From Candidatus Micrarchaeota archaeon (GTDB lineage Archaea > Micrarchaeota > Micrarchaeia > Burarchaeales > JAKAKT01), in NCBI GenBank assembly GCA_041305385.1, contig JBFYLO010000046.1, forward strand, positions 491-64,490: 64,000 nt of DNA, read 5' to 3'. The notes under the pieces were generated by a model. That model saw only the letters and a list, made by a program, of their open reading frames with translations, was not told the origin of the DNA and made no database searches. Position numbers and translations under genes: made by a program. How positions within the stretch are numbered: the first letter of the stretch is position 1; each line of letters opens with the position of its first letter. Positions 5,206 through 62,537 of this stretch are shown one piece after another.

Positions 5206-5214
5206 GCTTCCACC

Positions 5215-6679: not shown

Positions 6680-6732
6680 AGTTATGCCTTGTTAACTCGG
6701 TTATTTATAGTTGTCCTTTCGAGTATACTCTC

Positions 6733-23783: not shown

Positions 23784-24638
23784 TTGTCCACAATTAACAG
23801 CGCTAAAGAGGTGGTTATCGTGAGAGGAATCATGTTTGTTCTCGCGCTTCTTGCGCTCTCGATGTCTGTTTTTGCATTCGACTTAATCGTGAATAACATA
23901 TACTACTACCCGCAAAATCCAACGCCTGGCAGTTTGATTCCCGTAATCGTAGAGGTAATGAATATCGGTAACTCAACTGCGAACTCATCAATGACTGGCC
24001 TGGTCGTCGACGGGGCGTTATATGGGGCACGCATGGTCGGCCCGATTCAACCAATGCAAGCAGCATACGCGAACTTCACTTACAATGTTACGGCATCACC
24101 GAATCCGCACACTCTTGCTGGAGTCGCCGACTACTTCAAGGCAATTTCGGAGACGAATGAGAACAATAACCAGAAGGTAGTTTATCTCACAGTGACAATC
24201 CCCATCTACTGCGGGGACGGCATCTGCAACGGGAACGAAACCTACTATTCCTGCCCGAGTGATTGCCCGCCACCAATCTACTGCGGGGACGGCATCTGCA
24301 ACGGGAACGAAACCTGCAGCACCTGCCCAGGAGACTGCGGCCTATGCCCGAACTGCACTCCGCAGTGGTACTGCAAGAACCCGAACACAAGGGCTTACAA
24401 GAGTTCCACCTGTCAGGTGACGTATTTCCCATGCGGCAACAACTACTGCTGCAATAACGGAAAATGCATTAAGGACCTCTCTAACAAGTGCAGGAACGTG
24501 CAAATCAGCTATGCAGACGATGCGCTGGCACAAATGAAAGGCGCGCAATTACAGCTGAGCGCGCTGGCGTCCCTCCTTCTCGCAGCCCTAGTGGGAATCG
24601 TGCTCTATTCCTTCATGAAGATGGAGTCGCACCTCTAG
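23784..24638 (+). CDS. Cell-surface protein: CARDB-like N-terminal domain, tandem Cys-rich IYCGDGICNGNET..CP.DC modules, C-terminal TM anchor
   Basis: Signal/TM at N-terminus, NENNNQ..VYL CARDB-like motif, two 24-aa Cys modules, C-terminal hydrophobic helix. Confidence 0.5.
   Translation: MSTINSAKEVVIVRGIMFVLALLALSMSVFAFDLIVNNIYYYPQNPTPGSLIPVIVEVMNIGNSTANSSMTGLVVDGALYGARMVGPIQPMQAAYANFTYNVTASPNPHTLAGVADYFKAISETNENNNQKVVYLTVTIPIYCGDGICNGNETYYSCPSDCPPPIYCGDGICNGNETCSTCPGDCGLCPNCTPQWYCKNPNTRAYKSSTCQVTYFPCGNNYCCNNGKCIKDLSNKCRNVQISYADDALAQMKGAQLQLSALASLLLAALVGIVLYSFMKMESHL
24204..24315. repeat. Intragenic direct repeat: 40-bp unit ATCTACTGCGGGGACGGCATCTGCAACGGGAACGAAACCT twice (24204-24243 and 24276-24315)
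   Basis: Exact 40/40 nucleotide identity read directly from the sequence; encodes the duplicated Cys-rich module. Confidence 0.8.
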
Positions 24639-32397: not shown

Positions 32398-35028
32398 TTG
32401 CTCATGCTCACGAAAGATTTGCTTCGAAAGGAGTTCTCCCAGAACTACAAGGACTACTACCAGGTCGAGGTGTTCGAGAAGGAGGGCTTCACCAGGAAAA
32501 CATGTTCCTGCGGGAAGAGCTACTGGAGCGTTGGCGATACTCCCAACTGCGGGGACTCGATTCACGCGCCCTACTCCTTCTTCAAGCAGGCCAAGAGCAG
32601 GGATGATTACGTCAGCTTCTGGAAGAAATACGCCGCATTCTGGAAGAAGAACGGCCACACCATCATAACCCGCTACCCAGTGGTCAGCAGGTGGAGGCCT
32701 GACCTCTATTTCACAATGGCCTCCATTCAGGACTTCCAGAGGCTCGAGAAGGGCAAGATGACCTTCGAATATCCCGCTAACCCACTGATGGTCCCGCAAA
32801 TCTCTCTCCGCTTCAACGACATAGCGAATGTCGGGGTCACTGGCAGGCACTTCTCCTGCTTCACCATGGCAGGCCAGCACGCCTTCAACTACCCGAAAGA
32901 GGGCTATTGGAAGGACAGGTGCCTGGAGCTCAATTTCGAGTTCCTCACCAAGGTCCTCGGGGTCAAGAAGGCCGACCTCACCTACACCGAGGACGTCTGG
33001 GCCATGGGCGACTTCTCGGCATTCGGCCCCTGCGTGGAATCTTTTGCCAACGGGCTCGAGCTCGTCAACAGCGTCTTCATGCAGTACAGCTTCCTGAAGG
33101 ACCAGCGCCGCGAGCTTGACATCAAAGTAATCGATGTGGGCTGGGGATTCGAGAGGCTCCTCTGGTATTCAAACGGTGACTACACAGCATTCGATTCAGT
33201 CTTCCCGCGCGAGATAAAGTTCATGGAGAGCAAGGCAGGGCTCCAGGTGGACAAGGCGCTCTTCCACAAATACGCGGCCCTTGCCTCCAAACTCGACGCG
33301 GACGAGGGCTCAGTGATGTCCTATGAGGAGAAACGAATCGCGAAGGAGCTCGGCAAGACCCCCGAAGAACTCAGGAAGAGCATCTTCCCGCTCCAGGCAA
33401 TCTACGCGATTGCGGACCATTCGAGGACGCTTTTGTTTGCGATTTCCGACGGTTCTCTTCCCTCGAATGTGGGCGGGGGCTATAATCTTCGGGTGATACT
33501 CAGGCGCGCGCTCGGGTTCATGGATGAGTATGGTTTCAATTTTACGCTCGATGAGATAATCGACATGGTGGCCGAGGACCTCAAGCCCGTCTATCCGGAG
33601 CTTGCTGAGAACCTGCCCTCAGTGCACAAGATTCTGGAAGTCGAGACTGCGCGCTATGGGGAGAGCAGGAAGAAGGCGACAGGCATAGTCGAGTCCCTAG
33701 TCTCAGCCACAGGAAAGCTGACTACAGAGAAGATGACAACCCTCTATGAGAGCCACGGGATTACCCCGGAGCTCATCGAGAAAGTGGCCTCGGACATGAA
33801 AAAGCAGATTGAAATCCCAACCAATTTCTACTCAAAAATAACCAAAAAGACATTCAAGGAGAAGGAGGAGGAGATTCAAATCGATGCGAGCGGGCTTCCC
33901 CCAACAGAAATCCTCTATTATGAGGGCAAAACTGAAGCCAAGGCGAAGGTGCTCAAAATCGACGGGAACCGGGTTGTTCTCGACAAAACAATCTTCTACC
34001 CTGAGGGGGGAGGGCAGGCAACTGACTCGGGAACAATGGGCGGAATTCCAGTAATCCGGGCGGACAAGGTTGGGGATATAATTGTTCATACTCTGAAGCA
34101 GGCCCCGAATTTCAAGGTCGGAGAGCAAGTGGCTTGCAGTGTTGACCTAGACAGGCGCAATGCACTCATGCGCCACCACACAGCCACCCACCTGGTAAAC
34201 GCAGCCTGCAGGAAGGTTCTCGGCACCCACGTCTGGCAGGCAGGCGCGAAGAAAGAGCCGGAGATGGCGCACCTAGACATAACCCATTATGAAAAGATTC
34301 CTGCACCGGTTCTAAGGGAAATCGAGATCCTCGCGAACCGCTATGTTTACGAAAACCACACTGTTAAGAAGACAGTGATGGACAGAGGCGAGGCGGAGCA
34401 GAAATACGGTTTCATCCTCTACCAGGGGGGCGGCTCTCCTGGGAAGCGGATTAGGGTCATTGACATTGACGGCCTCGATGCAGAGGCATGCGGGGGCTTG
34501 CATGTCGACAGGACAGGTGACATCGGGCTCATAAAAATCATCTCCGAATCCAGAATTCAGGATGGGATTAACAGGATTGAGTTCAAGGCAGGCGCCCCGG
34601 CAATCGCCTACATTCAGGGGCAGGAGGAGATAATCAGAAAGGCGTCCGAGGAGCTCCACGTCCAACCTCTCCATCTCCCTGAGGCAGTCAGTAAGTTCTT
34701 CAGGGAATGGAAGGAGATGGCGAAAAAGGCGGAATCCATGACGGGCGAGATCGCGTCAGCCCAAATCGAGAAGCTCATCGCAGGAAAGGAGGGCATGATA
34801 AAGGCGAACCTCCCAGTTGACCAGAAATCCCTCCGGACCCTTGCGCTCACTCTCCAGTCAGCCGGGAGAGCAGGAGTTCTCATCGGGAAAGAAAACATAG
34901 TTGTCTGCGTTGGGGATTCCAAACACAAGGCCCGCGAGATGCTTCTTGAACTGACAAAGCAATTCGGGGGGAACGGCGGCGGGGATGACAACCTAGCGAT
35001 GGGAAAATTGGAGAGGAAGCCATTCTGA
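32398..35028 (+). CDS. alaS: Alanyl-tRNA synthetase (archaeal type, full length)
   Basis: N-terminal FEKEGFTRKTCSCGKSYWS...CGDS Zn motif typical of archaeal AlaRS, class II motifs, editing domain HxxxH (HHTATHLVN), C-terminal DHHA1-like GGGG motif. Confidence 0.9.
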   Translation: MLMLTKDLLRKEFSQNYKDYYQVEVFEKEGFTRKTCSCGKSYWSVGDTPNCGDSIHAPYSFFKQAKSRDDYVSFWKKYAAFWKKNGHTIITRYPVVSRWRPDLYFTMASIQDFQRLEKGKMTFEYPANPLMVPQISLRFNDIANVGVTGRHFSCFTMAGQHAFNYPKEGYWKDRCLELNFEFLTKVLGVKKADLTYTEDVWAMGDFSAFGPCVESFANGLELVNSVFMQYSFLKDQRRELDIKVIDVGWGFERLLWYSNGDYTAFDSVFPREIKFMESKAGLQVDKALFHKYAALASKLDADEGSVMSYEEKRIAKELGKTPEELRKSIFPLQAIYAIADHSRTLLFAISDGSLPSNVGGGYNLRVILRRALGFMDEYGFNFTLDEIIDMVAEDLKPVYPELAENLPSVHKILEVETARYGESRKKATGIVESLVSATGKLTTEKMTTLYESHGITPELIEKVASDMKKQIEIPTNFYSKITKKTFKEKEEEIQIDASGLPPTEILYYEGKTEAKAKVLKIDGNRVVLDKTIFYPEGGGQATDSGTMGGIPVIRADKVGDIIVHTLKQAPNFKVGEQVACSVDLDRRNALMRHHTATHLVNAACRKVLGTHVWQAGAKKEPEMAHLDITHYEKIPAPVLREIEILANRYVYENHTVKKTVMDRGEAEQKYGFILYQGGGSPGKRIRVIDIDGLDAEACGGLHVDRTGDIGLIKIISESRIQDGINRIEFKAGAPAIAYIQGQEEIIRKASEELHVQPLHLPEAVSKFFREWKEMAKKAESMTGEIASAQIEKLIAGKEGMIKANLPVDQKSLRTLALTLQSAGRAGVLIGKENIVVCVGDSKHKAREMLLELTKQFGGNGGGDDNLAMGKLERKPF

Positions 35029-36110: not shown

Positions 36111-36758
36111 TTAAAGCTTCCTTATGAAATCATGGCCCAGTTTTATCTCCTTTCTCCTGTGCTTTTTTGCGAGCTTGGCCGCCATCTTGCGCTCATGGTC
36201 GAGTATGAGGTGCTTCGACTCCATCCCTCCCTCCTCAACATCTTGTTTTTTAGCAGCAGCATTCTTCGGACCCATCTTCCCAAAGACTTCAGCCAGCTGT
36301 TTTCCCTTCAAAACGAAAACAGCAGCAAATATTATGAAGGCGATTGCCGCGGCCTGGCCGGTCTCAATGGGCGGGAGAGTGAGGTCTATGTTCGGTCCAA
36401 TGGGCCCCCCCAACTCTCCGGTCACGGTTATTGTCTTCTCAACGAGATTTTCCCCGCAGGCGACATTTATCCTGAGCCGCTCCCCAGGCCTCTTGGGGGT
36501 GTAGCTTATCACCGCCTTCCCCTTCGAATCAGTCATGTATGTGTATCTGCCCAGCGTAGTCTCTATCCCGGCTCTTGTTTCCATCACAGAGACAAGGATT
36601 TTGCAGTTCGAGTAAGGCCCTCCGTCCGGCTTCGTAACGTTCACAGCGCTCTTCCAGAGCGAGCAGCACTCGATGTTGTCATTCGAGAAAATCACGTCCG
36701 CCCAGCTAATCCCAATCAGGACAAGCAAAGCTATTGCTGCAGCCGAACGGTAGACCAT
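36111..36758 (-). CDS. Secreted membrane-anchored protein (signal peptide, C-proximal TM, Lys-rich cytoplasmic tail)
   Basis: N-terminal signal; TM AAIAFIIFAAVFVL; KK-rich tail. Confidence 0.4.
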   Translation of the reverse strand: MVYRSAAAIALLVLIGISWADVIFSNDNIECCSLWKSAVNVTKPDGGPYSNCKILVSVMETRAGIETTLGRYTYMTDSKGKAVISYTPKRPGERLRINVACGENLVEKTITVTGELGGPIGPNIDLTLPPIETGQAAAIAFIIFAAVFVLKGKQLAEVFGKMGPKNAAAKKQDVEEGGMESKHLILDHERKMAAKLAKKHRRKEIKLGHDFIRKL

Positions 36759-36794
36759 TGTCTCCTAAACCTATCTCAAGGGCGCTTAAAAAGG

Positions 36795-37307
36795 TTATTC
36801 TGTTATGGTGACTGGGATTATCTTAGTCCCAAGAACAGAACCGCTGGCATTAACTATCTCCATCCGCAGTTCCATCCTTCCCGGCATGCCCGGGCCCACC
36901 ACCTGGTTGAAGAAGAAGACAGGCTGTTCGAGGCTTTTTTCAATTCCTGGCTCAAGTGGGACCAGGCTTTCCGTCCCTCCCTCCAGCCCAGTCACACCGG
37001 TCCAGCTCCTGTCAGCCCCGTTTATCGCCTCCTCGGAATACAGGGGAACCCTCATCTCGTAAATGTCGTATTTCTGGTCAAGAACCTTCAGGTAATTGGT
37101 TATTGAGTCCCTGCTGGTTATGTTTGCCCGGATATGGAAATAGGTCGAATCCCTTGGAAAAGAGATGGAGTCATCGAAGGTCCCCTCGGTTTTCTGGCCA
37201 TCTGCGTCAATGAGAAGATAGCCGAGCTTGAAATCGACTTTCTCCTCTGGCTTGGGACAGCCGAAAAGCAATAGAAGGGCAATTGGGATTACCCACAGAA
37301 TCCTCAT
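36795..37307 (-). CDS. Secreted protein, probable lipoprotein (LLLFGC lipobox-like)
   Basis: MRILWVIPIALLLLFGCPKP signal; start taken at the internal Met. Confidence 0.45.
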   Translation of the reverse strand: MRILWVIPIALLLLFGCPKPEEKVDFKLGYLLIDADGQKTEGTFDDSISFPRDSTYFHIRANITSRDSITNYLKVLDQKYDIYEMRVPLYSEEAINGADRSWTGVTGLEGGTESLVPLEPGIEKSLEQPVFFFNQVVGPGMPGRMELRMEIVNASGSVLGTKIIPVTITE

Positions 37308-37311
37308 AGTC

Positions 37312-37569
37312 TCACAGACCGACAAAATCCTTCGTGCTCTTCCCTTTTGGGAAGACCTTTCCGTTCTTTGCGTATACCGGGAGCTGACATTCCTCGGAAA
37401 TCCTGAGCAATTCCTTCAGGTCGATGAACTTATTCACCTCAAGAACAGCGTATTTCCCGAACGGGGAGTCAATCCGCTTCACCACAAACTCCTCGTTCTG
37501 GTACATCCCGGCCCTGTAGACTCTTATCTCGCCCCTGCCCTTTCCGAGCAGTTCCTCCCTTGTTGCCAT
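37312..37569 (-). CDS. Small hypothetical protein (85 aa)
   Basis: ORF directly upstream of the lipoprotein gene; no family recognised. Confidence 0.25.
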   Translation of the reverse strand: MATREELLGKGRGEIRVYRAGMYQNEEFVVKRIDSPFGKYAVLEVNKFIDLKELLRISEECQLPVYAKNGKVFPKGKSTKDFVGL

Positions 37570-40308: not shown

Positions 40309-41226
40309 ATGGCTTCGATTCTCATAACCGGCGGCGCAGGGTTCATCGGTTCAAACCTGGCCGAAGCTCTCTCGAAGGAAAATAACGTGATTGTTCTTGA
40401 CAACTTCTCCACAGGCAAGAGGAGCAATCTCTCGGGCCTCAAGAAAATAAAAATCATCCGGGGCGACATCTGCGACAGGGCTAAAGTCCAGGCTTCCCTG
40501 AAGGGAATCGACACAGTTATCCACCTGGCGGCAATTGCCTCTGTCCCAAGGTCAATTGCAAACCCCGCAGAAGCCAACCGGGTCAATGCAGGGGGAACCG
40601 TAAATCTTCTCTTCGAGTCCTGCAGGGCCGAGGTTGACAGGTTTATTTACGCCTCCTCCTCCGCAGTTTATGGCGATGCCCCCGGGCTCCCGAAAAAAGA
40701 GACTTCCCACCTAGCCCCAATCTCGCCCTATGCAGCAACCAAGCTCGCCGGAGAGAAATTCTGCCTCTTCTTCGGGCACAACTTCGGCCTCTCGACAGTG
40801 AGCTTCAGGTATTTCAACATATACGGGCAGAAGCAGGACCCAGGCTCGGAATATGCGGCAGTAATCCCGAAATTCATTTCTCTCATGAAGAGGGGAAAGA
40901 GGCCCACAATTTTCGGGGATGGGAAGCAGACCCGCGACTTCACATATATTGGGGACGTGATTCGGGCAAATGAGCTGGCACTAAACTCGAAAAAAGGCTC
41001 CGGCGAAGTGTTCAATATCGCCATGGGCAAAGAGCAGAGCCTGAACGGGCTTGTTAAAACTCTGAACAAAATACTCGGCACGAAGCTCGAGCCAATTTAC
41101 GGTAAGGAAAGGCCGGGGGACATAAGGCGCTCGTTCTCAGACATCTCGAAGGCAAGAAAGGCTTTGGGCTATGCTCCAAAATTCAATCTCGAGCAGGGGC
41201 TAAAGGACACGCTCGGGAAAAAATAA
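40309..41226 (+). CDS. NAD-dependent nucleotide-sugar 4-epimerase (extended SDR, WbpP/GalE-like)
   Basis: TGGAGFIGSNL Rossmann motif, S-Y-K triad (YAATK), LDNFSTGK. Confidence 0.8.
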   Translation: MASILITGGAGFIGSNLAEALSKENNVIVLDNFSTGKRSNLSGLKKIKIIRGDICDRAKVQASLKGIDTVIHLAAIASVPRSIANPAEANRVNAGGTVNLLFESCRAEVDRFIYASSSAVYGDAPGLPKKETSHLAPISPYAATKLAGEKFCLFFGHNFGLSTVSFRYFNIYGQKQDPGSEYAAVIPKFISLMKRGKRPTIFGDGKQTRDFTYIGDVIRANELALNSKKGSGEVFNIAMGKEQSLNGLVKTLNKILGTKLEPIYGKERPGDIRRSFSDISKARKALGYAPKFNLEQGLKDTLGKK

Positions 41227-41368
41227 CAAGACCAAAAAGTAAAGAAGGCCCGGGCGAATTGCATTCTTAGCTCTCCGAGAGCCGCTTATGGTTCTTGAGA
41301 ATTCGATTGGCTTTGGTTGTTGACTGAACCCCGCGGGGCTCGAGCCAGTTGCATTATTTTTTGTTTTT

Positions 41369-41420
41369 GTATTGGAATTTGCTAAATCCAATGCGGCCAA
41401 ATTTCTGCAGAAATTTGTCC
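41369..41420. repeat. 52-bp conserved intergenic element, copy 1 of 3 (GTATTGGAATTTGCTAAATCCAATGCGGCCAAATTTCTGCAGAAATTTGTCC)
   Basis: Near-identical copies at 45157-45208 and 62127-62178; contains perfect palindrome CAAATTTCTGCAGAAATTTG; 23 bp upstream of the GT4 gene start. Confidence 0.75.
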
Positions 41421-41442: not shown

Positions 41443-42501
41443 GTGTTTTTTAACATTCGAGCCCATACTCCCCTCATGAGAGTTGCGATATTCGGTCCCT
41501 TCCACCAATCCCCGAGGGAAGGGGGGGTGGAGCAGCATGTGGCAAGGCTTTCCGACTCACTGGAGAAATCTGGAGTTGAAGTGGAGAGATGGAGCTGGAA
41601 AGCCCCCGAGAGCACCGAATCTATAAGGAAGTTCAGCCTGTTTGGCATCAGCGGCGCAGCCAAGAGCACAGGGGCCGACATCGTCCATTTCCACTCAACG
41701 GCAACCACTTTTTCATTGATGTGCGGTCTCGGGCGTTTCAAGGGCAAATCAATCGCAACCATGCACGCATTCTACCACCCGGAGTTTGAAAACACCCTGA
41801 GGATGAAGGCATTGAGCATTGCATTCGCCAAGCCCTATGTGCTGGCACTCAGGAGGCTCGGCAGAAGGATAGCAGTCAGCGAGTTCATCAGGTCCGAGGC
41901 TGAGTCTAATGGAGTGAGGACAGATGCAGTGATAAACAATGGGATAACGCTCAGCGAGTTCAGGGGAATCAGCAGGAGAAGCGAACTCGAGTCCGAAGTG
42001 GTGATGGTGGGGAGGTTCACCGAGCAGAAGGGCGTTTTCGATTTCATCGAGGCGTTCTCAGGCTCGGGAATCCAGGCTGCATTGGCCGGCTACGGCGGAA
42101 AGGACGTTGAGGAGCGCGTCAGGAAGCTCTGCGAAAAAGGAGGCATCAGGTGCTTTGTCAATCCTGACAGGAAAGTTCTCATGGAGATCATCTCCTCCTC
42201 GAAGGTTTTTGCCTTTCCCTCCAAGTACGAGCCCTTTGGAATTGTGGGCCTTGAGGCGATGGCTCTCGGGAAGCCGGTGGTCGTCTACTCGAGGGCCGGC
42301 GGGCCGCTGGACTACGTTTCGAGCGGCAAGAACGGCATGGTTATAAGCGAGGGCCCGGCGAAACTCCGCGACGCAGTCAAATCCCTGCTTGCAGACAGCA
42401 AGAAGCTAGGCACATTCTCAAAAAACGCATTCCAAACAGCGTCCCCCTATGATTGGGATAAGATAGCGGAAAGGACCAAGGCCATCTATTCCTCCCTCTA
42501 G
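41443..42501 (+). CDS. Glycosyltransferase family 4 (GT-B, group 1)
   Basis: EPFGIVGLEAMALGKPVV EX7E motif. Confidence 0.8.
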   Translation: MFFNIRAHTPLMRVAIFGPFHQSPREGGVEQHVARLSDSLEKSGVEVERWSWKAPESTESIRKFSLFGISGAAKSTGADIVHFHSTATTFSLMCGLGRFKGKSIATMHAFYHPEFENTLRMKALSIAFAKPYVLALRRLGRRIAVSEFIRSEAESNGVRTDAVINNGITLSEFRGISRRSELESEVVMVGRFTEQKGVFDFIEAFSGSGIQAALAGYGGKDVEERVRKLCEKGGIRCFVNPDRKVLMEIISSSKVFAFPSKYEPFGIVGLEAMALGKPVVVYSRAGGPLDYVSSGKNGMVISEGPAKLRDAVKSLLADSKKLGTFSKNAFQTASPYDWDKIAERTKAIYSSL

Positions 42502-43481
42502 CCGAACAGCCTCGGCCATCTTCTCATCATTCCTTTCTCGAGCCGTGCTGAAATTTCCGAGAAATACGGGTCTTCGATGTCTAGATGCTCCTTTTTGAAA
42601 ACCTCTTTTGCCAGGGCGATGCTTTCGCTGCCATCCCCAATGACCTCCCTCAAGCGCCCCTCCCATTCCTCCTCCCCAAATCCGCGGACCACCCATTTTT
42701 CAGGCAGGAAAGACGCCGCTCCAACGCGGGCAGAGGCGAGAACCGGAGTCGAGGCGCTCAGCGCCTCAGTGACAACAAACCCAATGGGGTCGCTCAGGGG
42801 CGGATGGATGAGCGCCTTTGCCCTAGAGTAGTACGAAAAGAGCTCCTCCCGTTTCTCCAGGAAAGGGATATACTCCAGGTTTGGAATCGACTTGGCCCGC
42901 TCTGCTATCTCGCTCTCCATCCTTCCCCGGCCTATGAAAACAAACTGCTCTTCCTTCATCTTTTCAGCGAGCCTCAGGAACAGAAGCGGGTTCTTGGAAG
43001 CCTCGGCCCTCCCAACGAAAAGTATGAGGTCCCGTTTCTTCGAGCCGCATTTCTTCTCATCCGCAGGCGGAACGAAGAAGCACTCGAGCCCAAGGCCCCT
43101 GAGGAACGCGGCCCCGGCCTTGGTCTGTGAGATGAAGGGCATTCCTGAGAAAGCCCTAAGCCCCAGGCTAGCAGCAGAATCCTTAATCACGCCTCTTGGG
43201 GTATACTCCTCGCAGAAAACAGCGGGAACTCCGGAGGTGAGAATCTTCCAACACTCAAGCGCGATTAGCGGCGAATTCGCCAAATAAATATTTTCCCTGC
43301 TCAGTTCGAGGGGCATATACCAAAGGATTTTCGTCTTGGAAAGAAACAGGCGCCGCGTGGTGTACTCGCCAGGCGCTATGTCCATAACCCCAAAACCTAT
43401 TTTTTCAGCTATCCTCAGAAGGACAGTTTTTGGGGCCTGGTAGACCGGATGCGACCCGAGCAGAGATATGACCTTTCCCAT
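42498..43481 (-). CDS. Glycosyltransferase family 4 (GT-B, group 1)
   Basis: DPIGFVVTEALSASTPVLA EX7E-like motif; 327 aa. Confidence 0.65.
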   Translation of the reverse strand: MGKVISLLGSHPVYQAPKTVLLRIAEKIGFGVMDIAPGEYTTRRLFLSKTKILWYMPLELSRENIYLANSPLIALECWKILTSGVPAVFCEEYTPRGVIKDSAASLGLRAFSGMPFISQTKAGAAFLRGLGLECFFVPPADEKKCGSKKRDLILFVGRAEASKNPLLFLRLAEKMKEEQFVFIGRGRMESEIAERAKSIPNLEYIPFLEKREELFSYYSRAKALIHPPLSDPIGFVVTEALSASTPVLASARVGAASFLPEKWVVRGFGEEEWEGRLREVIGDGSESIALAKEVFKKEHLDIEDPYFSEISARLEKGMMRRWPRLFG

Positions 43482-43489
43482 AAAAACGC

Positions 43490-44230
43490 CTAGAGCCTTT
43501 TTTTGAAAAGCCCGATGAACCGCTGGGCGAGTTCAGCTGCCGCATAGGGCACCACTGCGCCCTGCTCCTTCTTTATCCGCCTGACTTCGGGCTCGAACTT
43601 CTTCCTCTGCGACATCGTTTTTGAGCTCGAGTGCAGCCTCAAATCCGCGAGCACAATCCCGGGGAGATACTCGATTCTACAACGCTTCGATACCCTCACA
43701 AGGAAGTCATAATCCATGGCGAAGTTGAACCGCTCATCTATAAAGCCGACTTTTTCGAAGACCCCCCGCCTGAAGAAAATTGTCTGCTGCGGAATCATCT
43801 GGAAGTAGTTTAAGTTTCGGAAATAACTGAAGCGGGCGGTTCTCCACACCGCAAGCTCCTTGTCGTTCTCATCTATGAACCTGCAATCCGAATAAATAAG
43901 GTCGGTTTCAGGATGTCCCCCAAGGTAATCTATGGCTTTCTTGAAGGCCCCTGGCTCATAAACATCATCTGCATTTATCCAGCCGATTAGCCCGCCAGTT
44001 GCCATCTTGAACCCAACATTCAGGGCTTGGGACTGGTTGGTCTTCTCTGCCAAAACAAATTTCACATTGGGATATTTCTTAGCTACCCTGTCCGTTCCAT
44101 CATTCGAGCCCGCATCCACAATTATGTGCTCATAGTTCGGGTAGTTTTGGTTTTTCACCGAGAGGATGGTCCTCTCGATGAACGCCCCAGATTTGTAGGA
44201 CGGAGTGATTATGCTTATCTTTTCCATCAA
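43490..44230 (-). CDS. Glycosyltransferase family 2
   Basis: ISIITPSYKSGAFIERTILSVKNQ, DAGSNDGT, DxD region. Confidence 0.8.
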   Translation of the reverse strand: MMEKISIITPSYKSGAFIERTILSVKNQNYPNYEHIIVDAGSNDGTDRVAKKYPNVKFVLAEKTNQSQALNVGFKMATGGLIGWINADDVYEPGAFKKAIDYLGGHPETDLIYSDCRFIDENDKELAVWRTARFSYFRNLNYFQMIPQQTIFFRRGVFEKVGFIDERFNFAMDYDFLVRVSKRCRIEYLPGIVLADLRLHSSSKTMSQRKKFEPEVRRIKKEQGAVVPYAAAELAQRFIGLFKKRL

Positions 44231-45117
44231 GACCCCTCGCGTTTAAGGAATGGATCATATCTGATGAGCCCCAGCTTCTTCTTAAAGGCCACCTCCAAAT
44301 ATCCTGCTCTCGCGAAATAGGAGGCTAAGAAATGGTTGGTGGCAATACCCGCCCATCCATCAAGGAACGCCCCGTAAGTTATGAGCCCGTGGAGGAAATA
44401 GACGGGGTAGCCCAGGAGTATGAAGGCCCATTTCACCAGGGGGTTCCTAGAGAGATACTCCCCTTTCTGCTCTCTCTCGACTTTCACGTAGATATCATGC
44501 TTTTGCCTTATTCTCTCCGCCCCGGCAGTGTAATAAAGATGATCATAGGCGATGTTGGAGTAGAAGTGCTTCCCCTCAATTCTCGGGGCCTCGTGAATTT
44601 TCATGTTCCAATTGATTTTGCAGTTTTTCCTGTAAAACCTGGGCTCATGGTGGGGCCTGTAAAATCCATGCCCAAACCATTTCCCAGGCGCGTAGAAGTG
44701 TTTTGAGAGGAGCCAAATTACATCGTAATCGCTTTGTTTTGCGAGCTTCGGGAGCTCAGCCCGGGCTTCTTCAGTAAGCCTTTCATCTGCATCTATGTGA
44801 AGTATCCACTCATAGCGTGCGTTCTCGTTCAAGAGTGCCCTCTCCACATCTGCCCAGTTCTTTTCAGTCGGGTTCTTTTTTCGGATTACCCTGGCGCCAG
44901 CACCCAAAAGAATCTCAGCCGTCCTGTCATTGCTCTCATGGTCTATCGCGACTATCTCGTCTACGACCCCCCGCAGGTTCGGGAGGAGTTCCGAGAGGTT
45001 CTTCTCCTCGTTTTTTACCATCATGCACGCGGTTATCCATTTTTTTGCAGTTGCCATTTTCCACGCCTTCCCATACGCCAGCGCTTGCTGAAGAACTTCT
45101 AGGGATACATGAAGCAA
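44227..45117 (-). CDS. Glycosyltransferase family 2-like
   Basis: ACMMVKNEE, IDHESND, HIDADE DxD-type motifs; start uncertain (several in-frame Met). Confidence 0.55.
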   Translation of the reverse strand: MLHVSLEVLQQALAYGKAWKMATAKKWITACMMVKNEEKNLSELLPNLRGVVDEIVAIDHESNDRTAEILLGAGARVIRKKNPTEKNWADVERALLNENARYEWILHIDADERLTEEARAELPKLAKQSDYDVIWLLSKHFYAPGKWFGHGFYRPHHEPRFYRKNCKINWNMKIHEAPRIEGKHFYSNIAYDHLYYTAGAERIRQKHDIYVKVEREQKGEYLSRNPLVKWAFILLGYPVYFLHGLITYGAFLDGWAGIATNHFLASYFARAGYLEVAFKKKLGLIRYDPFLKREGS

Positions 45118-45156
45118 ATTTCCGCATGTTGCTTAGACCACAGGCAGTTTTTTATT

Positions 45157-45208
45157 GTATTGGAATTTGCTAATCCCAATGCGGCCAAATTTCTACGGAA
45201 ATTTGTCC
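45157..45208. repeat. 52-bp conserved intergenic element, copy 2 of 3
   Basis: 48/52 identical to copy 1; 40 bp upstream of the start (45117) of the minus-strand GT2 gene. Confidence 0.75.
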
Positions 45209-45490
45209 CGCCATCCCCAGGCTTAAATAAACTAGCCTATCGTTTTAATGTTTTCTCCCAAGCCCAAAGAACACAGAAAAAGCCAAGCAACAAACCCGAG
45301 CTTGAGCTGGCCCGCAGGAGCTACACCACTCCAACCTGATTTTTCGGGTTCGCCGGCGTTGCGCGCTCGGCGTTGGCGAGGCTCGGGCGCAACCCGAGTT
45401 ATCTCGTTGGTTGGGCGCATATGTCCAGGCTTATTGAGAAGTATATCCTCTCAGACAAAAAGTGGCTTCTTTTAAGAAATGCAGGAAATG

Positions 45491-50673: not shown

Positions 50674-52479
50674 CTAACTCTTATCGCTTACCAGTATGTT
50701 CTTCTTCAGTTCTTCTCTGCTGAGAAGCGGGTGGAGGTCCTCAAGAGGCCTTGAGACTATCTTCCCGTTCGCATCAATCGTTGAAGAAAGGCGCGGGGTT
50801 ATCTGTTGATCAGGCGAACCAACAAGCTCGCAGACAGTCGGTTCCTTCCAAGAGAGGACCTTTTTTATTTTTTCCCTTATCTCACCGTTGTGTCGTATTC
50901 TTTCAGTCTTAAACCCATATGCCTTAGCTACTTCCAGGATGTCGGGAAGGCAGACCCCTGACGTCTTGTCACACCCTACGAAATGGGAGCCAAAGTAATT
51001 CTTTTGAGTGTTTCTAATTGTGACATACCCGCCGTTACTCAGGACGAAAATCTTTATCGGCAGTGAGTAAGTGATGATAGTTTGGAGTTCCTGGATGTTC
51101 ATTTGTATACTCCCATCCCCAGTTATGCATATCGTGCGCCTCCCGCTCCCGACGCAAGCTCCTATTGCAGAAGGCAGGTCCCAGCCCATGGCGGCCATCC
51201 CCCTGGAAGTCAAAAAGCGCTGGCCCCTTTTTATCTTGAATGCCTGGGAGCTCGTTATGTACGCAGTGGCAGAACTTGATGGGACGATTACATCATTTTC
51301 ACTAAGCAAACCTGAAAGCACATCTACGAAAACATATGGGTTCACATGCCCCTGCTCTTCGCAATATTCCGGGAGCGAAACCGGGTACTTCTTATTCCAT
51401 TCCAAGCATCTTCCAATCCACTCAGCATGTTTTTTCGTCTTGTGTGCCTTTCCATTAAGCCGATTGAGCATCTCTTCCATGAACACTTTCGCATCGCTTT
51501 TGATTTTGAGCGCAGGATGCAGGATTTTCTTGTCAAGCTCGGCTTCAGAAATGTCCACCATTGCTAGTTTTGCTCCCCTCGCGAAGCTTTCATGATTATA
51601 CCCTATCTGCTGAATGCCAAGCCTCGCCCCTATTACCAGCAGGAAATCTGAGTTCTGTATTACGAAACTTGCTGCCCTCTGCCCTCCAAGCATATTCGGG
51701 CGCCCAAAATAGAGCTCGTGGTCATCTGGCAAGAAATCTATCGCGCCCCAGGTTAAGAGAACCGGTATTCTAAGGGCTTCGACTAGCCTCTCGAATTCTG
51801 GGAGCCCATGTGCGAGCCTTACCCCATTTCCCGCAAGGAGAACCGGGCGCTTTGCGGAAAGAAGGAGGGTTATCACTTCTTCGACTTGTCTACTTAAAGC
51901 CTTCTTGCCAAGCTCTTCATTTTCTTTTTCCGGGGTGAATCCCTTAAGAGTTTTTTCATCAACTTGCGTTGCTTGTATGTCAAGAGGTATGTCAAGCCAG
52001 ACCGGTCCGGGCCTCCCGCTCGTTGCAAGGTAAAGGGCCTTCTCGAGATGATAACGTATTTTCTCAGGCTCAATGACGAGCTCGGAATATTTTGTTATTG
52101 GCCTCACGATGTCTATGATGTTCAATTCCTGGTACCCGTTTTGCCTGAGCCCTCCGTTCAATAGGTCAGATTGCTTTACCTGACCGGATACGACAATTAC
52201 GGGTATCGAGTCAACCCATGCTCCTGCAATTCCGGTTATGGCGTTTGTGCTGCCAGGTCCCGTAGTTACATTCACTAATCCAACTCCATCCGTCACTCTT
52301 GCATATCCCTCAGCAGCAATCGAGGCCGCCTGCTCATGGAGCGTGCACACATACTTCATTTTCGTTGCCTTTCCAAAAGAGTCGTTCAGGTGCATGGCGC
52401 CACCTCCGCTGAGCATGAAAACGTGCCGTATCCCGCACTCTTCCAGAAACCTTACTATGTAATCAGATACCTTCAACAT
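50674..52479 (-). CDS. Thiamine-pyrophosphate enzyme of the acetolactate-synthase superfamily (YerE/sulfoacetaldehyde acetyltransferase-like)
   Basis: Three-domain ALS architecture: N-terminal pyrimidine-binding domain, central domain, C-terminal GDGS...N TPP-binding motif (ICITGDGSIQMNIQEL...NGGY). Confidence 0.8.
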   Translation of the reverse strand: MLKVSDYIVRFLEECGIRHVFMLSGGGAMHLNDSFGKATKMKYVCTLHEQAASIAAEGYARVTDGVGLVNVTTGPGSTNAITGIAGAWVDSIPVIVVSGQVKQSDLLNGGLRQNGYQELNIIDIVRPITKYSELVIEPEKIRYHLEKALYLATSGRPGPVWLDIPLDIQATQVDEKTLKGFTPEKENEELGKKALSRQVEEVITLLLSAKRPVLLAGNGVRLAHGLPEFERLVEALRIPVLLTWGAIDFLPDDHELYFGRPNMLGGQRAASFVIQNSDFLLVIGARLGIQQIGYNHESFARGAKLAMVDISEAELDKKILHPALKIKSDAKVFMEEMLNRLNGKAHKTKKHAEWIGRCLEWNKKYPVSLPEYCEEQGHVNPYVFVDVLSGLLSENDVIVPSSSATAYITSSQAFKIKRGQRFLTSRGMAAMGWDLPSAIGACVGSGRRTICITGDGSIQMNIQELQTIITYSLPIKIFVLSNGGYVTIRNTQKNYFGSHFVGCDKTSGVCLPDILEVAKAYGFKTERIRHNGEIREKIKKVLSWKEPTVCELVGSPDQQITPRLSSTIDANGKIVSRPLEDLHPLLSREELKKNILVSDKS

Positions 52480-52489: not shown

Positions 52490-55087
52490 CTATTCTTCAG
52501 GCAGCAAGTCTATCATCATATTCTTCTTCAGTTCATCTCGATTGAGGAACGGGAACATGTCTTCAAGCGGTTTCGAAACAAGGGTTCCGTCGGGCCGCAC
52601 GGCTGAGACAAGGCGTGGTTCTATCTCCTGCTCTTTGCTGACTTCAATGAAGCAGGCGAAAGCACCTTCACTTCTGAATAGTCCTGCCATCAGTTTGTCT
52701 AGCTCTGCGTCATTTTTTATGCGCAACGTCTTGAGCCCAAAAGCCGAGCATATCTTCTCGAGATTCGGGAATCCCTTCCCGCTTTCATCATCTGCGCCAA
52801 ATATCCTGTTCTTGAAATACGCCTTCTGTGCCTTCCTCACAGTGGAATGCCCGTGGTTGTCAAGAATGAAAATCTTTGCCGGAATCCTATACTTTACAAT
52901 CGTCGCAAGGTCTGAGAGGCCCGCGATAAGGCCGCCATCTCCACACACTGCAATTATGTTGTGTTCCTTGTCTGCTGCATACGCCCCTATTGCTCCAGAG
53001 ACGCCAAACCCTGGAACAGGGAGCCCGGAGAACGTGATTACTTTTTGGCATTTTTTGAGCGTTAGCGCCTGCACAACTACATTCAGACCCATGCCCCGGT
53101 CAGCAACAATCACGTCTCCCTCCTTCGCAAGTTCAGAAAGTTTTTCGATGAAATGATAAACGTCTACGAATTCGTCGCTTTTTCTCAGCCTAGCTTCTAC
53201 AAGATATTTCTTCTTCCACTCCCTGCACGTTCCCATCCATGTAGAGCAATCTGGGAGCTTCTCGTTTGCGAGTTGCCGCTCGAGTTCCGCTATGAAATCC
53301 TTTGCGTCAGCGACAATCGGAAGCTCGGGAGAGATAGTGAATTTCTTAACCTCTTCTGGGTCAATGTCAACCACAACCTTCTTTGCCTCCCTTGCGAAGG
53401 CATCGTGCTTGCACCCTATCTCCTGCATGGACAATCTGCTTCCTATCACTATCAGAAGGTCGGAATTCTGCACTGCGAAGTTGGCTGAGCGGTTGCCAAA
53501 CGAACCGAACACCCCGAGGAACTGGCGGTGCCCGGTTTCGATAAGGTCCTTTCCGTTAATGCTTACAACAATCGGGACTTTGAGTTTGCCAATGATTGTC
53601 CTCAGCTCTTTTTCAGCACTAGAAAGCCTTATTCCATGTCCAGCTATAATAAGGGGCCTTTTCGCGCCTTTCAGTAATTCGACCGTGCGGGCAACGTTTC
53701 TAGCGAGCCTCGCCCGAGCGAAGTCATTATCCTCCAGCGTCTCTCCTGGAGCAAATGCCCGCAGTTCATCCTCATCAATCACCCTGCTTTGTATGTCAAG
53801 AGGTATGTCAAGCCAGACCGGTCCGGGCCTCCCGCTCGTTGCAAGGTAAAGGGCCTTCTCGAGATGATAACGTATCTCTTCCGAGTTATCGACACGGGCA
53901 GCGTACTTTGTTATTGGTTTTACAAGCGAGATTGTGTCGAGTTCGCTTATGCCAACCTGCCGCAGCCCAGTGCCGCAGGCTGTTTCAGTAGATTTTGCCT
54001 GGCCCGATATGATAAGGCCGGGGACTGAGCTCACCCATAAGCTAGCAATTCCGCTTATCGTGTTTGCTGCTGAAGCGCCTGCCGCAACTACAGCTACTCC
54101 GGGCCTCCCGCTGACCCGAGAATAGGCGCCGAGAGCCATCACAGTATTCCTCTCGTCGTGAAGGAACACATACCGTATTTGTTCACTCTTGCCAACTGCA
54201 TCAAGCAGGTGAAGATTCGCCGGTCCCGGAGCCAAAAAGAACCCACCTAAACCTTTCCTCTCAAGGTACGAAACGATATAATCAGAAAGCCTAATCATCG
54301 TATCCCGCTTCTTTATGATTAGAAGTTCGACTTCCCCGCTCGCTTTGACGTTTTCCCGGTCTATTCCCTCAAGGTCAATAGTATCCCCGACAGTTGCAAT
54401 TGGTTTTCCCCCATGGCTGTTGATTCCTCCCGAAAGAAGGCTGATTGCATCCGCCTGAAGCCCCCGAAACGCCCTTCGGAACTCATTTGGTCCACTGTAG
54501 CGGGCTATGCGGATGCTGCAGCTCCCGAATTTTTTCATCGTGTTGTAATAAGCGTCGGAACCCTCAAGCGTTATGTAATTGTAGTTCTGGAGATTAATCG
54601 AGTAGTGCTCCTTGCTTTCATATGGCATTCCCGCTCTGCCGTGTGCGTCCTTGAAACGGACAAGGTCTCGCTTATTCACCGGGCTCTCTATTTCCATCAC
54701 GTAAATTCCGCCCTCAGATTTCGCAGTTGTACAATGAAAGACGCCTTTGTCTATCCTCAGTCCATCCCCTGCCGAGAGCTTGAACTCACCATTAAGTGAA
54801 GAGCAGACCGCCTCGCCGGCAATCAAAACAAGCGAGGTCTTTTTGTTTGGGTGGCAATGAAGGGAGGTCTGGAATCCTTTTTTTATGTATAATATCCAAA
54901 CGGCTACCCCCTTATTTACGAAAATCAAATATTCGTGGCCCCAGGGCTTGCGGACAACCACTCTTGAGTAATCAAAGAAGTCGTCAGCCTGGGTTGAGGG
55001 GTCAACATTAATGGCGCTCAGGGTCTTAATGTCAGACTCGCTGCGCTCAATCCGTCTTATCATATGCACCCATTGTTTTTTCAGCAT
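52490..55087 (-). CDS. Fusion protein: N-terminal cupin (sugar 3,4-ketoisomerase/MPI-like, ~260 aa) plus C-terminal ALS-like TPP enzyme (~600 aa)
   Basis: WGHEYLIF...SLHCHPNKKTSLVLIAGEA cupin metal-site motif; then full ALS fold with GDGG TPP motif (IIAVCGDGGLIAGL); paralogous to the adjacent TPP gene. Confidence 0.7.
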   Translation of the reverse strand: MLKKQWVHMIRRIERSESDIKTLSAINVDPSTQADDFFDYSRVVVRKPWGHEYLIFVNKGVAVWILYIKKGFQTSLHCHPNKKTSLVLIAGEAVCSSLNGEFKLSAGDGLRIDKGVFHCTTAKSEGGIYVMEIESPVNKRDLVRFKDAHGRAGMPYESKEHYSINLQNYNYITLEGSDAYYNTMKKFGSCSIRIARYSGPNEFRRAFRGLQADAISLLSGGINSHGGKPIATVGDTIDLEGIDRENVKASGEVELLIIKKRDTMIRLSDYIVSYLERKGLGGFFLAPGPANLHLLDAVGKSEQIRYVFLHDERNTVMALGAYSRVSGRPGVAVVAAGASAANTISGIASLWVSSVPGLIISGQAKSTETACGTGLRQVGISELDTISLVKPITKYAARVDNSEEIRYHLEKALYLATSGRPGPVWLDIPLDIQSRVIDEDELRAFAPGETLEDNDFARARLARNVARTVELLKGAKRPLIIAGHGIRLSSAEKELRTIIGKLKVPIVVSINGKDLIETGHRQFLGVFGSFGNRSANFAVQNSDLLIVIGSRLSMQEIGCKHDAFAREAKKVVVDIDPEEVKKFTISPELPIVADAKDFIAELERQLANEKLPDCSTWMGTCREWKKKYLVEARLRKSDEFVDVYHFIEKLSELAKEGDVIVADRGMGLNVVVQALTLKKCQKVITFSGLPVPGFGVSGAIGAYAADKEHNIIAVCGDGGLIAGLSDLATIVKYRIPAKIFILDNHGHSTVRKAQKAYFKNRIFGADDESGKGFPNLEKICSAFGLKTLRIKNDAELDKLMAGLFRSEGAFACFIEVSKEQEIEPRLVSAVRPDGTLVSKPLEDMFPFLNRDELKKNMMIDLLPEE

Positions 55088-60805: not shown

Positions 60806-62065
60806 CTACCAGCAGACCCCTTCGTAGTTCCCGCCGCTCTTCTTCTTCAGGACTTTCCTTCCGTCAAAAACGATTTTTCCAGCATAGAGCTTCTCGTCCC
60901 GGAACTCCTTCCACTCAGTGACCACGAACACTACATCTGAGTAGGCGAGAGCCTCCGTGAGGCTTTTCGCATAGCCTATCTTGTTCCCGAATATCCCCCT
61001 GGCGTTCTCATTCGCCTCTGGGTCGTAAGCCATCACCGAAGCCCCTTCCTCGAGAAGCCTGTTGATTATCTTTATGCTCGGGGCTTCCCTCATGTCATCG
61101 CTGTCCGGCTTGAAAGCGAGCCCGAGGACCGCGATTTTTTCCCCTTTCAGGTTCATTCTCTTTTTCGCAATCTCCACGAGCCTGTAGGGCTGCCCCTCGT
61201 TCACTTCGAGCACCGAGCCAAGGAGCCTGGGTTTCACCCCATTCTCCTTGAAAAGGGAAACGATTGCCTTCACATCCTTCGGGAAGCAGCTCCCGCCGAA
61301 CCCGACCCCTGCATTCAGGAACTTCCTGTTGAGCCTGCTGTCGAGCCCCACGGCATCCATCACATCATAAACGTCTATGGAAAGCTCCTTGCACAGGTTC
61401 CCCATCTCGTTCGCGAAGCTGATTTTTGTCGCGAGCAGGGAGTTGCTCGCATATTTTATCATCTCAGCGGTTCTCCTGTTCGTCTTTATTATGGGGCACT
61501 TGAAGTGCGCATAGAGCTCCGAGACTTTATCCATCGTCCGCTCATCCTCGGCGCCTATGGCGAGCCTGTCAGGATTGAAGAAGTCGTTCACGGCCATGCC
61601 CTCCCTGAGGAACTCGGGGCTCATGGCGAGCCCGAAATCCACCCCGTCAATTTTTCCTTTCTTCTTTGCAAGCCCTGCGAGCCTGTCAGTGGTGCCCGGG
61701 ACAACCGTGCTCTTCACTACGATGGCCCGGAAGGAGTCAATGGCTGAAATGACATCAAGGAACGATTTGTCGATATAAGAAAGGTCTATGGACCCGTCAT
61801 TCCTGGACGGCGTCCCCACTGCGATGAAAATAATCTCGGCACCTGGAAGGGCTGCCCCGAGGTCAGTTGTGGCAGTCAGGTTCTTCCCCACAACATCATT
61901 CATGAGCTCCTGAAGCCCCTCCTCATAAATCGGCGGCTTCTTCCCGTTTATCATGTCAACTTTCTTTCTGTCAACATCGATGCAGGAAACATTATGGCCA
62001 AGCTTCGCGAAGCCGCAGCCCGTAATCAGTCCGACATATCCGGTCCCTACAATGCAAATTTTCAT
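60806..62065 (-). CDS. ugd: UDP-glucose 6-dehydrogenase
   Basis: MKICIVGTGYVGL NAD motif, catalytic GFGGSCFPKD, 419 aa. Confidence 0.85.
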   Translation of the reverse strand: MKICIVGTGYVGLITGCGFAKLGHNVSCIDVDRKKVDMINGKKPPIYEEGLQELMNDVVGKNLTATTDLGAALPGAEIIFIAVGTPSRNDGSIDLSYIDKSFLDVISAIDSFRAIVVKSTVVPGTTDRLAGLAKKKGKIDGVDFGLAMSPEFLREGMAVNDFFNPDRLAIGAEDERTMDKVSELYAHFKCPIIKTNRRTAEMIKYASNSLLATKISFANEMGNLCKELSIDVYDVMDAVGLDSRLNRKFLNAGVGFGGSCFPKDVKAIVSLFKENGVKPRLLGSVLEVNEGQPYRLVEIAKKRMNLKGEKIAVLGLAFKPDSDDMREAPSIKIINRLLEEGASVMAYDPEANENARGIFGNKIGYAKSLTEALAYSDVVFVVTEWKEFRDEKLYAGKIVFDGRKVLKKKSGGNYEGVCW

Positions 62066-62126
62066 GAAACCACTCTTTAACTAACGCGTACAACAATTAA
62101 AATTCTTCGGACGGGGTTTCCTTGTT

Positions 62127-62178
62127 GTATTGGAATTTGCTAATTCCGATGAGGCCAAATTTCTGCGGAAATTTGTCC
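62127..62178. repeat. 52-bp conserved intergenic element, copy 3 of 3
   Basis: 47/52 identical to copy 1; 62 bp upstream of the ugd start (62065, minus strand), between divergent genes. Confidence 0.75.
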
Positions 62179-62242
62179 CTTGGCTGCATCTCCATTGGCC
62201 AGAATACGGTAACGTTAAATAGTATGCAGTAGATATAATCTC

Positions 62243-62530
62243 ATGGAGACGCTCGATGAGCTCAGGCAGGAGATTGAACTCTGTGTTCGAATGAAGCGCG
62301 GTGGCCCTTACGACGAGGAATTCGTGAAAAAAGAGCTTCCAGAGAGGCAAAAGCGAATTCTAGAATCCCTTAGGGCAGTCAGCAGGGCTGTTTCCCTAAG
62401 CGAGGACCAGCGGTCGCTTCTTTATGAGATAACTGACATCATCGAGAACGAAAGCAAGTTCAACAACGCAGAATTCCTCGAAAGCGCCAAGAGAAAAACA
62501 GAGGATCTTGCGCAGAACGTAAGAGAATGA
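62243..62530 (+). CDS. Small hypothetical acidic protein (95 aa)
   Basis: ORF only. Confidence 0.25.
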   Translation: METLDELRQEIELCVRMKRGGPYDEEFVKKELPERQKRILESLRAVSRAVSLSEDQRSLLYEITDIIENESKFNNAEFLESAKRKTEDLAQNVRE

Positions 62531-62537
62531 GCCCCCC

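Follow-up and report, generated by a model that had tools for sequence, protein, structure and literature searches.

The three copies and their setting

A cluster of glycosyltransferase and nucleotide-sugar genes lies on mixed strands at 40.3-62.1 kb of the 64-kb stretch of Micrarchaeota DNA analyzed here (hereafter the window), and a 52-bp element occurs three times in this glycan cluster, at 41369-41420 (copy 1), 45157-45208 (copy 2) and 62127-62178 (copy 3). All copies are on the + strand, in direct orientation, and are spaced 3.8 and 17 kb apart. Each is made up of two adjacent hairpins. The first (H1) is variable, carries an internal loop and has the arms GTATTGGA...TCCAATGC in copy 1. 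The second (H2) follows the scheme GCCAAATTTC-N4-GAAATTTG, written out GG.CAAATTTC-NNNN-GAAATTTG.CC, and reads GGCCAAATTTC-TGCA-GAAATTTGTCC in copy 1. H1 and H2 occupy 41369-41394 and 41395-41420 in copy 1, 45157-45182 and 45183-45208 in copy 2, and 62127-62152 and 62153-62178 in copy 3, where H1 is a 10-bp stem with G-U/G-T wobbles. The H2 hairpins of the window differ solely in their 4-nt centre (TGCA, TACG and TGCG).

An initial annotation of this DNA had described the same three positions in the same orientation, and both are confirmed. It had put the identity between copies at 47-48 of 52 positions, and we count 48 of 52 (92%) for each pair. The perfect 20-bp palindrome that it ascribed to the element is found in copy 1 but not in copies 2 and 3, whose centres are TACG and TGCG. 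Its general anatomy, two dyads within promoter-bearing spacers of a glycan cluster, was right.

The element (family D2 of a whole-window repeat scan) is the sole dispersed non-coding repeat of the 64 kb; the other repeat families are paralogous coding segments. Matches to the H2 pattern GGCCAAATTTCTNCNGAAATTTGTCC on the + strand of the window fall exactly on the three element sites, and 100 dinucleotide-preserving shuffles gave 0 matches. A covariance model of H1 and H2 (R1), built from the alignment A4 presented below and run with filters off, scored copy 1 at 64.4 bits (E = 4e-14) and copies 2 and 3 at 64.2 bits each, and no other match in the window was better than E = 0.6. When the copies were aligned together with 70-80 nt of flank, the likeness stopped at the element edges with the exception of a T-rich left flank; the flanks were otherwise unrelated. 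TT stands directly 5' of all three copies and of a related copy in a metagenome locus (L069, see below), and may represent a target preference. At copy 1 the T-rich flank is ATTATTTTTTGTTTTT (41353-41368, + strand). It is preceded by two overlapping GC palindromes, CCCCGCGGGG and GGCTCGAGCC, and together they fill a terminator-like region (41329-41368) between the end of an epimerase gene and copy 1. As read from the sequence, ATTATTTTTTGTTTTT may be an oligo-T terminator for the epimerase gene, following the GC palindromes at 41329-41346. An isolated H2-type half-site, CAAATTTCCGCA, lies at 45115-45126 (+ strand), 31 bp to the left of copy 2 in the promoter region of a GT2 operon. Outside the three copies the window holds just two CAAATTTC 8-mers, of which this is one, and chance may account for it.

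Copy 1 is located between the epimerase gene (40309-41226, + strand), which lies 5' of it, and a GT4 gene on the + strand with a likely ATG at 41476, 56 bp from its H2 end. A GT4-GT2-GT2 operon on the minus strand (42498-45117) has its TTG start at 45117, 40 bp from the H1 side of copy 2. The UDP-glucose dehydrogenase gene (60806-62065, minus strand) starts with an ATG at 62065, 62 bp from the H1 side of copy 3, and from there down to 45491 the cluster runs mostly on the minus strand and comprises NDP-sugar transferases, epimerases/dehydratases, a DegT aminotransferase, thiamine pyrophosphate (TPP) enzymes and a GT2. Copy 3 also precedes, with its H2 side, an open reading frame (ORF) of 95 aa on the + strand (ATG at 62243). 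The initial annotation had placed each copy 23-62 bp upstream of the first gene of an operon. The copies do adjoin operon or gene starts, but on mixed strands, and the 23 bp claimed for copy 1 rest on a mechanical GTG start of the GT4 gene. The distance from the element to the start codon is 40-65 bp on either side. Since copy 1 precedes a + strand gene and copies 2 and 3 adjoin the starts of minus-strand operons, the copies are not uniformly oriented towards the glycan genes: the side facing the glycan gene is H2 in copy 1 and H1 in copies 2 and 3.

In front of many genes of the window a TATA-like box stands ~22-33 nt from the start codon, a sign that their transcripts may be leaderless. By these boxes, all of them read from the sequence, the three copies are located in promoter-bearing spacers, with a spacing to the boxes that is not constant. 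Copy 1 ends 26 bp before the TATA-like box of the GT4 gene. Copy 2 lies with its H2 side 14 bp before a TATA-like box at 45222-45231, and its H1 side directly abuts (0 bp) an A/T-rich box of the minus-strand GT2 operon at 45147-45156. Copy 3 sits between divergent promoters of the leaderless type, 36 bp before the box of the 95-aa ORF (62214-62222) and 23 bp from that of the UDP-glucose dehydrogenase gene (62095-62104). The box at 45222-45231 is followed ~20 nt further on by the start of an unsupported 75-aa ORF (45248-45475, + strand), which is arginine-rich, without a family match and probably non-coding, so the box may drive an untranslated or antisense transcript.

A conserved two-hairpin structure in unrelated contexts

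We aligned eight sequences of the element and its relatives (A4). For the two-helix structure 96.7% of the cells are paired, compared with 28-59% when the partners were slid, and RNAalifold predicted the same two helices unaided. Compensatory changes are present at six pairs, five of them in H1, and the sixth is the closing pair of H2 (G-C to U-A). Because the search pattern itself dictated the H2 stem, its identity across loci is not evidence of conservation. The H1 loop measures 4, 6 or 18 nt depending on the lineage. Pairing of the H1 arms is thus kept by compensation while their spacing shifts between 4 and 18 nt, which fits a hairpin and not a dimer site of fixed geometry. The stems are capped by stable tetraloops (UUCG, UACG). 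Under RNA parameters the window copies fold better than shuffled controls (+ strand, z-scores of -3.3 to -3.6; minus strand, -2.8 to -4.7), and DNA parameters agreed. The alignment contains six wobble and four A.C cells. These are balanced and so favor neither strand as the folding strand, and the folding energies likewise do not discriminate between strands.

To find relatives, the H2 pattern GCCAAATTTCNNNNGAAATTTG was scanned over 185,579 species genomes (GTDB), and a metagenome collection was scanned for H2 as well. Most of the ~60 loci in the species genomes were chance matches, and four were Micrarchaeota metagenome-assembled genomes (MAGs; L030, L038, L055 and L058), far above the share of such genomes in the collection. 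The metagenomes added L069, L092 and L098 as well as two duplicates, L068 (of L030) and L072 (of L055). H2 is preceded by a hairpin at every one of these loci. The relatives scored 65-74 bits with R1, and L038 and L055 scored 29-35 bits, with one copy per family locus. No meaningful match turned up in viral contigs or in phage and plasmid records.

The neighbors of the relatives have nothing to do with glycans. At L030, L092 and L098 the element lies in spacers beside small genes, encoding a DUF7557/VapB-like protein, a protein without Pfam family and a protein that we read by eye, respectively. We considered these small divergent genes as a common regulator and rejected the idea because their families differ. 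The L038 element is found 45 bp from a tRNA-Leu gene. In L055 (identical to L072) an intron-containing tRNA gene (5470-5628) is immediately followed by five tandem ~60-bp units on the minus strand (5176-5460). Every one of these consists of the tRNA 3' acceptor strand CCCCTGGCCCA, its complement, TCT and an H2-type hairpin, so that the array resembles a string of tRNA-acceptor minihelices. The H2 helices of two of these units have wholly different, yet compensated, sequences.

Four loci carry promoter-equipped versions of the module: L030 (5040-5193, minus strand), L058 (3338-3530, + strand), L092 (~490-622, minus strand) and L098 (1964-2113, + strand). These L030-type loci have a TATA box whose start is 24-25 nt ahead of model position 1 in H1. 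Their 3' tail, CCATGCC(N)GTGG, is a second version of the H1 5' strand, and T-runs are found 110-170 nt downstream. Two additional covarying hairpins are common to L030 and L058. The element itself begins with GTAT in the window copies, with GTAG at L069 and with CCAG or CCGG at the L030-type loci. On these sequence features, the L030-type loci look like single-copy small-RNA genes more than selfish repeats and are candidates for an unannotated small-RNA family of Micrarchaeota. The 52-bp units of the window could be promoter-less derivatives of such a gene; alternatively, the L030-type loci could be elements beside, or carrying, a promoter. Rfam 15 at the gathering threshold recognized 5S rRNA alone in the window, and permissive scans of the element regions, L030, L038, L055 and L058 returned nothing relevant. 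C/D-box, H/ACA, SRP and RNase P identities of the window element and the L030-type loci were rejected by eye, as the boxes were missing, the size was wrong and Rfam gave no match. A guide RNA of the IscB/TnpB kind at L030 and L058 was also dismissed: the long ORF downstream of L030 is spurious or convergent and contains a cytochrome b5 fragment alone, and R1 finds nothing at the tnpB gene of L062 (see below).

At L069 the element (49-122, + strand) lies within a coding gene, antisense in the ORF directly upstream of aroA. With the 22 residues encoded by the element, this ORF matches Pfam SKI weakly (16.8 bits, 79 residues over 58 profile positions). Without these 22 residues (66 nt) the match to SKI positions 99-156 is gapless and lies above the curated cut-off (27.4 bits, E = 4e-6), and the ORF also matches residues 109-164 of M. 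tuberculosis shikimate kinase. The 66-nt insertion keeps the frame and is bounded by an 8-bp direct repeat, AAGGACAA, whose copies are exactly 66 nt apart. Its site corresponds to the lid region of shikimate kinase, a place not expected of an operator or of a small-RNA gene. In this single case, the element has thus entered a conserved gene in frame and left the ORF open. In-frame insertion in genes is a hallmark of Rickettsia palindromic elements (RPEs; PMC10969869).

The closest relatives of the window were compared around the alanyl-tRNA synthetase gene (AlaRS; L061, L062/63, L113 and L114; 82-86% identity) and around UDP-glucose dehydrogenase orthologs (L110 and L111/112; 69-72% identity), together ~90 kb of non-redundant sequence. 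The AlaRS gene of the window lies at 32398-35028, and its best named relatives are exclusively Candidatus Micrarchaeota. R1, run with filters off, found no copy in these ~90 kb. The spacers upstream of the orthologous UDP-glucose dehydrogenase genes (L110, L111/112) and their clusters showed no trace of the element. Its presence at these promoters is therefore lineage-specific. The glycan cluster of the nearest relatives has another location and a different gene content. A gene for TnpB (OrfB_IS605/Cas12f-like) is located at 14460-15593 of L062, and also in L063, between genes that are adjacent in the window (36111-37325 region), in L061 and in L113. This insertion between conserved neighbors indicates activity of the IS200/IS605 family in this Micrarchaeota lineage.

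Mobile repeat, operator or RNA module

[quoted passage not shown] The 52-bp unit would belong to a small family of hairpin-bearing interspersed repeats of Micrarchaeota with a variable H1 and an H2 of the common scheme, and a function provided in trans would copy it and paste it elsewhere. In the glycan cluster, three or more young copies (92% identical) would have arrived in T-rich, promoter-proximal spacers, directly 3' of TT and on the same strand. The subterminal hairpins, the lack of terminal inverted repeats (TIRs) and of a target-site duplication (TSD) in the window, the constant left TT and the uniform strand lead us to suggest, with low confidence, that the element moved as folded single-stranded DNA through a Y1 transposase of the IS200/IS605 or REP-associated tyrosine transposase (RAYT) type. 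An influence on the promoters next to it would have come as a by-product or through co-option later on, and a secondary regulatory effect of this kind on neighboring promoters may exist in this genome.

A miniature repeat had been the second choice of the initial annotation, and it is the choice that the evidence favors. Several observations support a mobile repeat. The copies are young and sharp-edged, their hairpins are conserved, family members stand in unrelated contexts and one of them is an in-frame insertion, the orthologous sites in the closest genomes lack the element, which would not be ancestral there, TT precedes all four copies of the window type, the strand is uniform, no fixed promoter geometry is kept, and a TnpB of the IS200/IS605 family is present in the sister genome L062. 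Other observations weigh against it. The copy number is low, with 3 copies in 64 kb, 0 in the other 43 kb of the window and 0 in the ~90 kb of relatives, and in the GTDB scan no Micrarchaeota species genome had more than one locus with the exact H2 pattern, whereas many would be expected of a classical REP or MITE family. All three copies fall within the 21-kb glycan cluster, for which we estimate a probability of (22/64)^3, ~0.04, under uniform placement. The window copies have neither TIRs nor a TSD, and no transposase, integrase or RAYT gene was found among the window ORFs scanned. A search for homologs of the L069 kinase fragment returned nothing, and the insertion evidence is that of one locus. 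Finally, the likeness of the L030-type loci to single-copy small-RNA genes does not speak for a selfish repeat.

Of the known families, REPs, RPEs and MITEs come closest to the element in their way of working; it lacks traits that define each of them. REPs are single stem-loops of 20-40 bp with a GTAG or CGTC tag, usually present in >100 copies and often arranged as inverted doublets (PMC3733652). Like REPs and bacterial interspersed mosaic elements served by RAYTs, the element is a short palindromic extragenic stem-loop repeat without TIR or TSD near gene ends and promoters, and its L069 copy begins with GTAG (PMC2817692, PMC3733652). However, it has two unlike hairpins, a low copy number in the sequence covered and a GTAT (window) or CCAG/CCGG (L030-type) start, no RAYT was seen in the window, and its host is a DPANN archaeon whereas the GTAG survey lists bacterial phyla (PMC3733652). 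With two stem-loops in place of one and no constant GTAG tag, the element does not qualify as a REP. With RPEs it shares the character of a palindromic selfish repeat that sits in frame in a housekeeping gene, here the kinase lid region, and leaves the frame open. RPEs are ~100-150 bp long, fall into some ten families, have dozens of insertions within genes and occur in Rickettsia alone (PMC10969869); the element, in contrast, measures 52-66 bp, offers one intragenic case and has no sequence relation to them.

MITEs of prokaryotes, among them those known in the archaea Sulfolobus, Halobacterium and Haloquadratum (palindrome-associated transposable elements, PATEs), are small, non-coding, non-autonomous, mostly intergenic and AT-rich and can affect neighboring promoters, as would be true of the element (PMC10969869). 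Unlike MITEs, the window copies lack TIR and TSD, no parent insertion sequence was identified, and they are far shorter than typical MITEs. The left end, GTATTGGAAT, is unrelated to the reverse complement of the right end, GGACAAATTT, the inverted repeats being internal to H1 and H2, and a flanking direct repeat is missing at the three window copies; L069 alone has one, the 8-bp repeat already mentioned. Without TIR and TSD, the element is not a MITE. PATEs are derived from IS200/IS605 and have subterminal palindromes in place of TIRs (PMC10969869). The hairpins of the element within 0-3 nt of both ends, the absence of TIR and TSD from the window copies, TT 5' of the four window-type copies and the single strand of the three window copies would fit this type. 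Against it stand the dissimilarity of H1 and H2, the flanking repeat at L069 and a TnpB solely in the sister locus L062, no TnpA having been found. The archaeal hosts listed in a review of MITEs include no Micrarchaeota or other DPANN (PMC10969869), and we found no literature on such repeats in Micrarchaeota.

The initial annotation had proposed a cluster-specific operator for a dimeric regulator. According to such a reading, H2 and possibly H1 would be dyad operators or upstream activating sites, original or co-opted, which are bound as duplex by a dimeric archaeal factor that co-regulates divergent leaderless glycan promoters. Several features are in line with this idea. All three copies lie in promoter-bearing spacers of one 21-kb cluster, with the remaining 43 kb of the window devoid of them, TATA-like boxes are found 0-36 bp away on one or both sides, H2 is a dyad of 2 x 8-10 bp in which the variation between copies is limited to the central 4 bp, and a further half-site of the H2 type stands 31 bp away from copy 2. 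Palindromic operators are known from archaeal regulators, an example being the TGM motif of the TrmB family (TATCAC-N5-GTGATA), and H2 resembles them in size, symmetry and nearness to BRE/TATA. Known archaeal operators, however, have a fixed position relative to the TATA box or transcription start and are conserved at orthologous promoters, and neither is true of the element: it lies 26, 14 and 36 bp away from the TATA-like boxes on its H2 side and 0 and 23 bp away on its H1 side, its orientation to the flanking glycan genes varies, and it is absent from the orthologous UDP-glucose dehydrogenase promoters and the glycan clusters of the nearest relatives. The H1 half-sites stay complementary across lineages while their spacing shifts, and family members are found beside unrelated genes, beside tRNA genes and inside coding sequence. 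A co-occurring regulator gene, which the initial annotation had suggested looking for, was not found: the cluster contains no helix-turn-helix (HTH), ribbon-helix-helix or winged HTH (wHTH) regulator, and no protein with a DNA-binding domain was found in the whole of 40-64 kb. The proposed operator is therefore unsupported, and we consider a shared cis-regulatory site unlikely.

We are equally doubtful about a structured RNA module, in which the hairpins would act in the transcript, as 5' domain of a small RNA, leader or stabilizer, and the window copies would be paralogs or fragments of a Micrarchaeota small-RNA gene. Covariation supports the helices, + strand folding beats that of the shuffles, stable UUCG and UACG tetraloops cap the stems, and the L055 tandem units keep their H2 helix through fully compensated changes. 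The L030-type loci add the upstream TATA box, the T-runs and, at L030 and L058, the extra covarying hairpins. Against an RNA module, a TATA box at the distance seen at the L030-type loci is missing from copies 1 and 2, and that of copy 3 is 5-7 nt out of register; the two strands fold about equally, with the near balance of wobble and A.C cells; Rfam gave no match at either the gathering or a permissive threshold; and the L069 copy is antisense within a coding gene.

An even bolder version carries less weight with us. The 52-bp module would be the portable 5' domain (H1-H2) of an undescribed, promoter-equipped Micrarchaeota small-RNA gene, multiplied and co-opted to couple divergent surface-glycan promoters. 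The L030-type loci would represent this gene, and so would L055, as tandem units resembling tRNA acceptors. Within it, and at the same low level of belief, the element might be a DPANN-specific archaeal counterpart of JUMPstart-like elements and an archaeal palindromic element able to insert in frame. The JUMPstart/ops element, reportedly described by Hobbs and Reeves in 1994, lies upstream of bacterial polysaccharide operons. It is part of the transcribed leader, has a fixed orientation and acts through RfaH. Our element is similarly short and conserved and recurs before glycan operons. Unlike JUMPstart, its orientation to the operons varies, and at the minus-strand operons it sits upstream of the predicted TATA boxes instead of following them; the ops sequence GGCGGTAG is absent.

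Site-specific recombination sites, with the direct copies delimiting exchangeable blocks for a recombinase, are highly improbable: although the copies are in direct orientation and bracket functionally coherent blocks (glycosyltransferases at 41.4-45.2 kb, nucleotide-sugar genes at 45.2-62.1 kb) and H2 resembles a recombinase core with inverted arms round a short spacer, the central spacers (TGCA, TACG, TGCG) are unequal and would block strand exchange between copies, the window yielded no gene for a recombinase or an integrase, the two separate hairpins and the mixed gene orientation are unlike integron attC sites, and relatives show no cassette-like presence/absence pattern with element sites. 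An identity as attC was rejected as such, since attC is a single imperfect hairpin (R''-L''/L'-R') that closes co-oriented cassettes at their 3' end beside an intI integrase and the element is two independent hairpins, its genes are in mixed orientation and the window has no integrase. Origin recognition boxes (ORBs), which cluster, often inverted, about an AT-rich unwinding element beside orc1/cdc6, were rejected as well: the copies are direct and 3.8 and 17 kb apart, and orc1/cdc6 is 35 kb away and without adjacent repeats. The H1 of L030, TTCCAGTGGAAC, resembles what we take to be the ORB core.

Other features of the window and significance of the element

Outside the element, several features of the window deserve mention. 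The Orc1/Cdc6 gene (5215-6279, minus strand) encodes a Cdc6 lid, an AAA+ domain and a wHTH. The adjoining 6280-6732 is a small membrane-protein ORF without ORB-like repeats, so there is no obvious origin beside orc1/cdc6. The 5S rRNA gene at 17011-17126 (71.8 bits) stands alone, as 16S, 23S and tRNA genes are missing from the entire 64 kb. A tandem 72-nt coding repeat at 24201-24338 (+ strand) specifies the Cys-rich motif CGDGICNGNET...C in a CARDB-domain protein (23784-24638). In the glycan cluster, two adjacent paralogous TPP-dependent enzymes (50674-52479 and 52490-55087, minus strand) share a 146-nt segment of 83% identity, the second being fused to an N-terminal cupin domain; beside Ldh_2 and DJ-1/PfpI genes, the pair forms an unusual sugar-modification module. 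After the 95-aa ORF, a 110-aa Pro/Ser-rich ORF (62527-62859, + strand) is probably spurious, and opposite to it 62538-63056 (minus strand) encodes a 172-aa multi-zinc-ribbon protein.

DPANN archaea, whose genomes are very small, are believed to hold little selfish DNA, and palindromic short repeats have hardly been described in them. If the element were merely a low-copy selfish repeat, this would be an ordinary finding. In the related loci with promoters there are signs of a small-RNA family of Micrarchaeota that is not yet annotated. If the element is a hairpin repeat that sits beside surface-glycan promoters and can enter genes in frame, it would provide a handle on the genome plasticity of these episymbionts, on assembly breaks and strain variation in MAGs, and possibly on variation of the cell surface, which mediates contact with the host.

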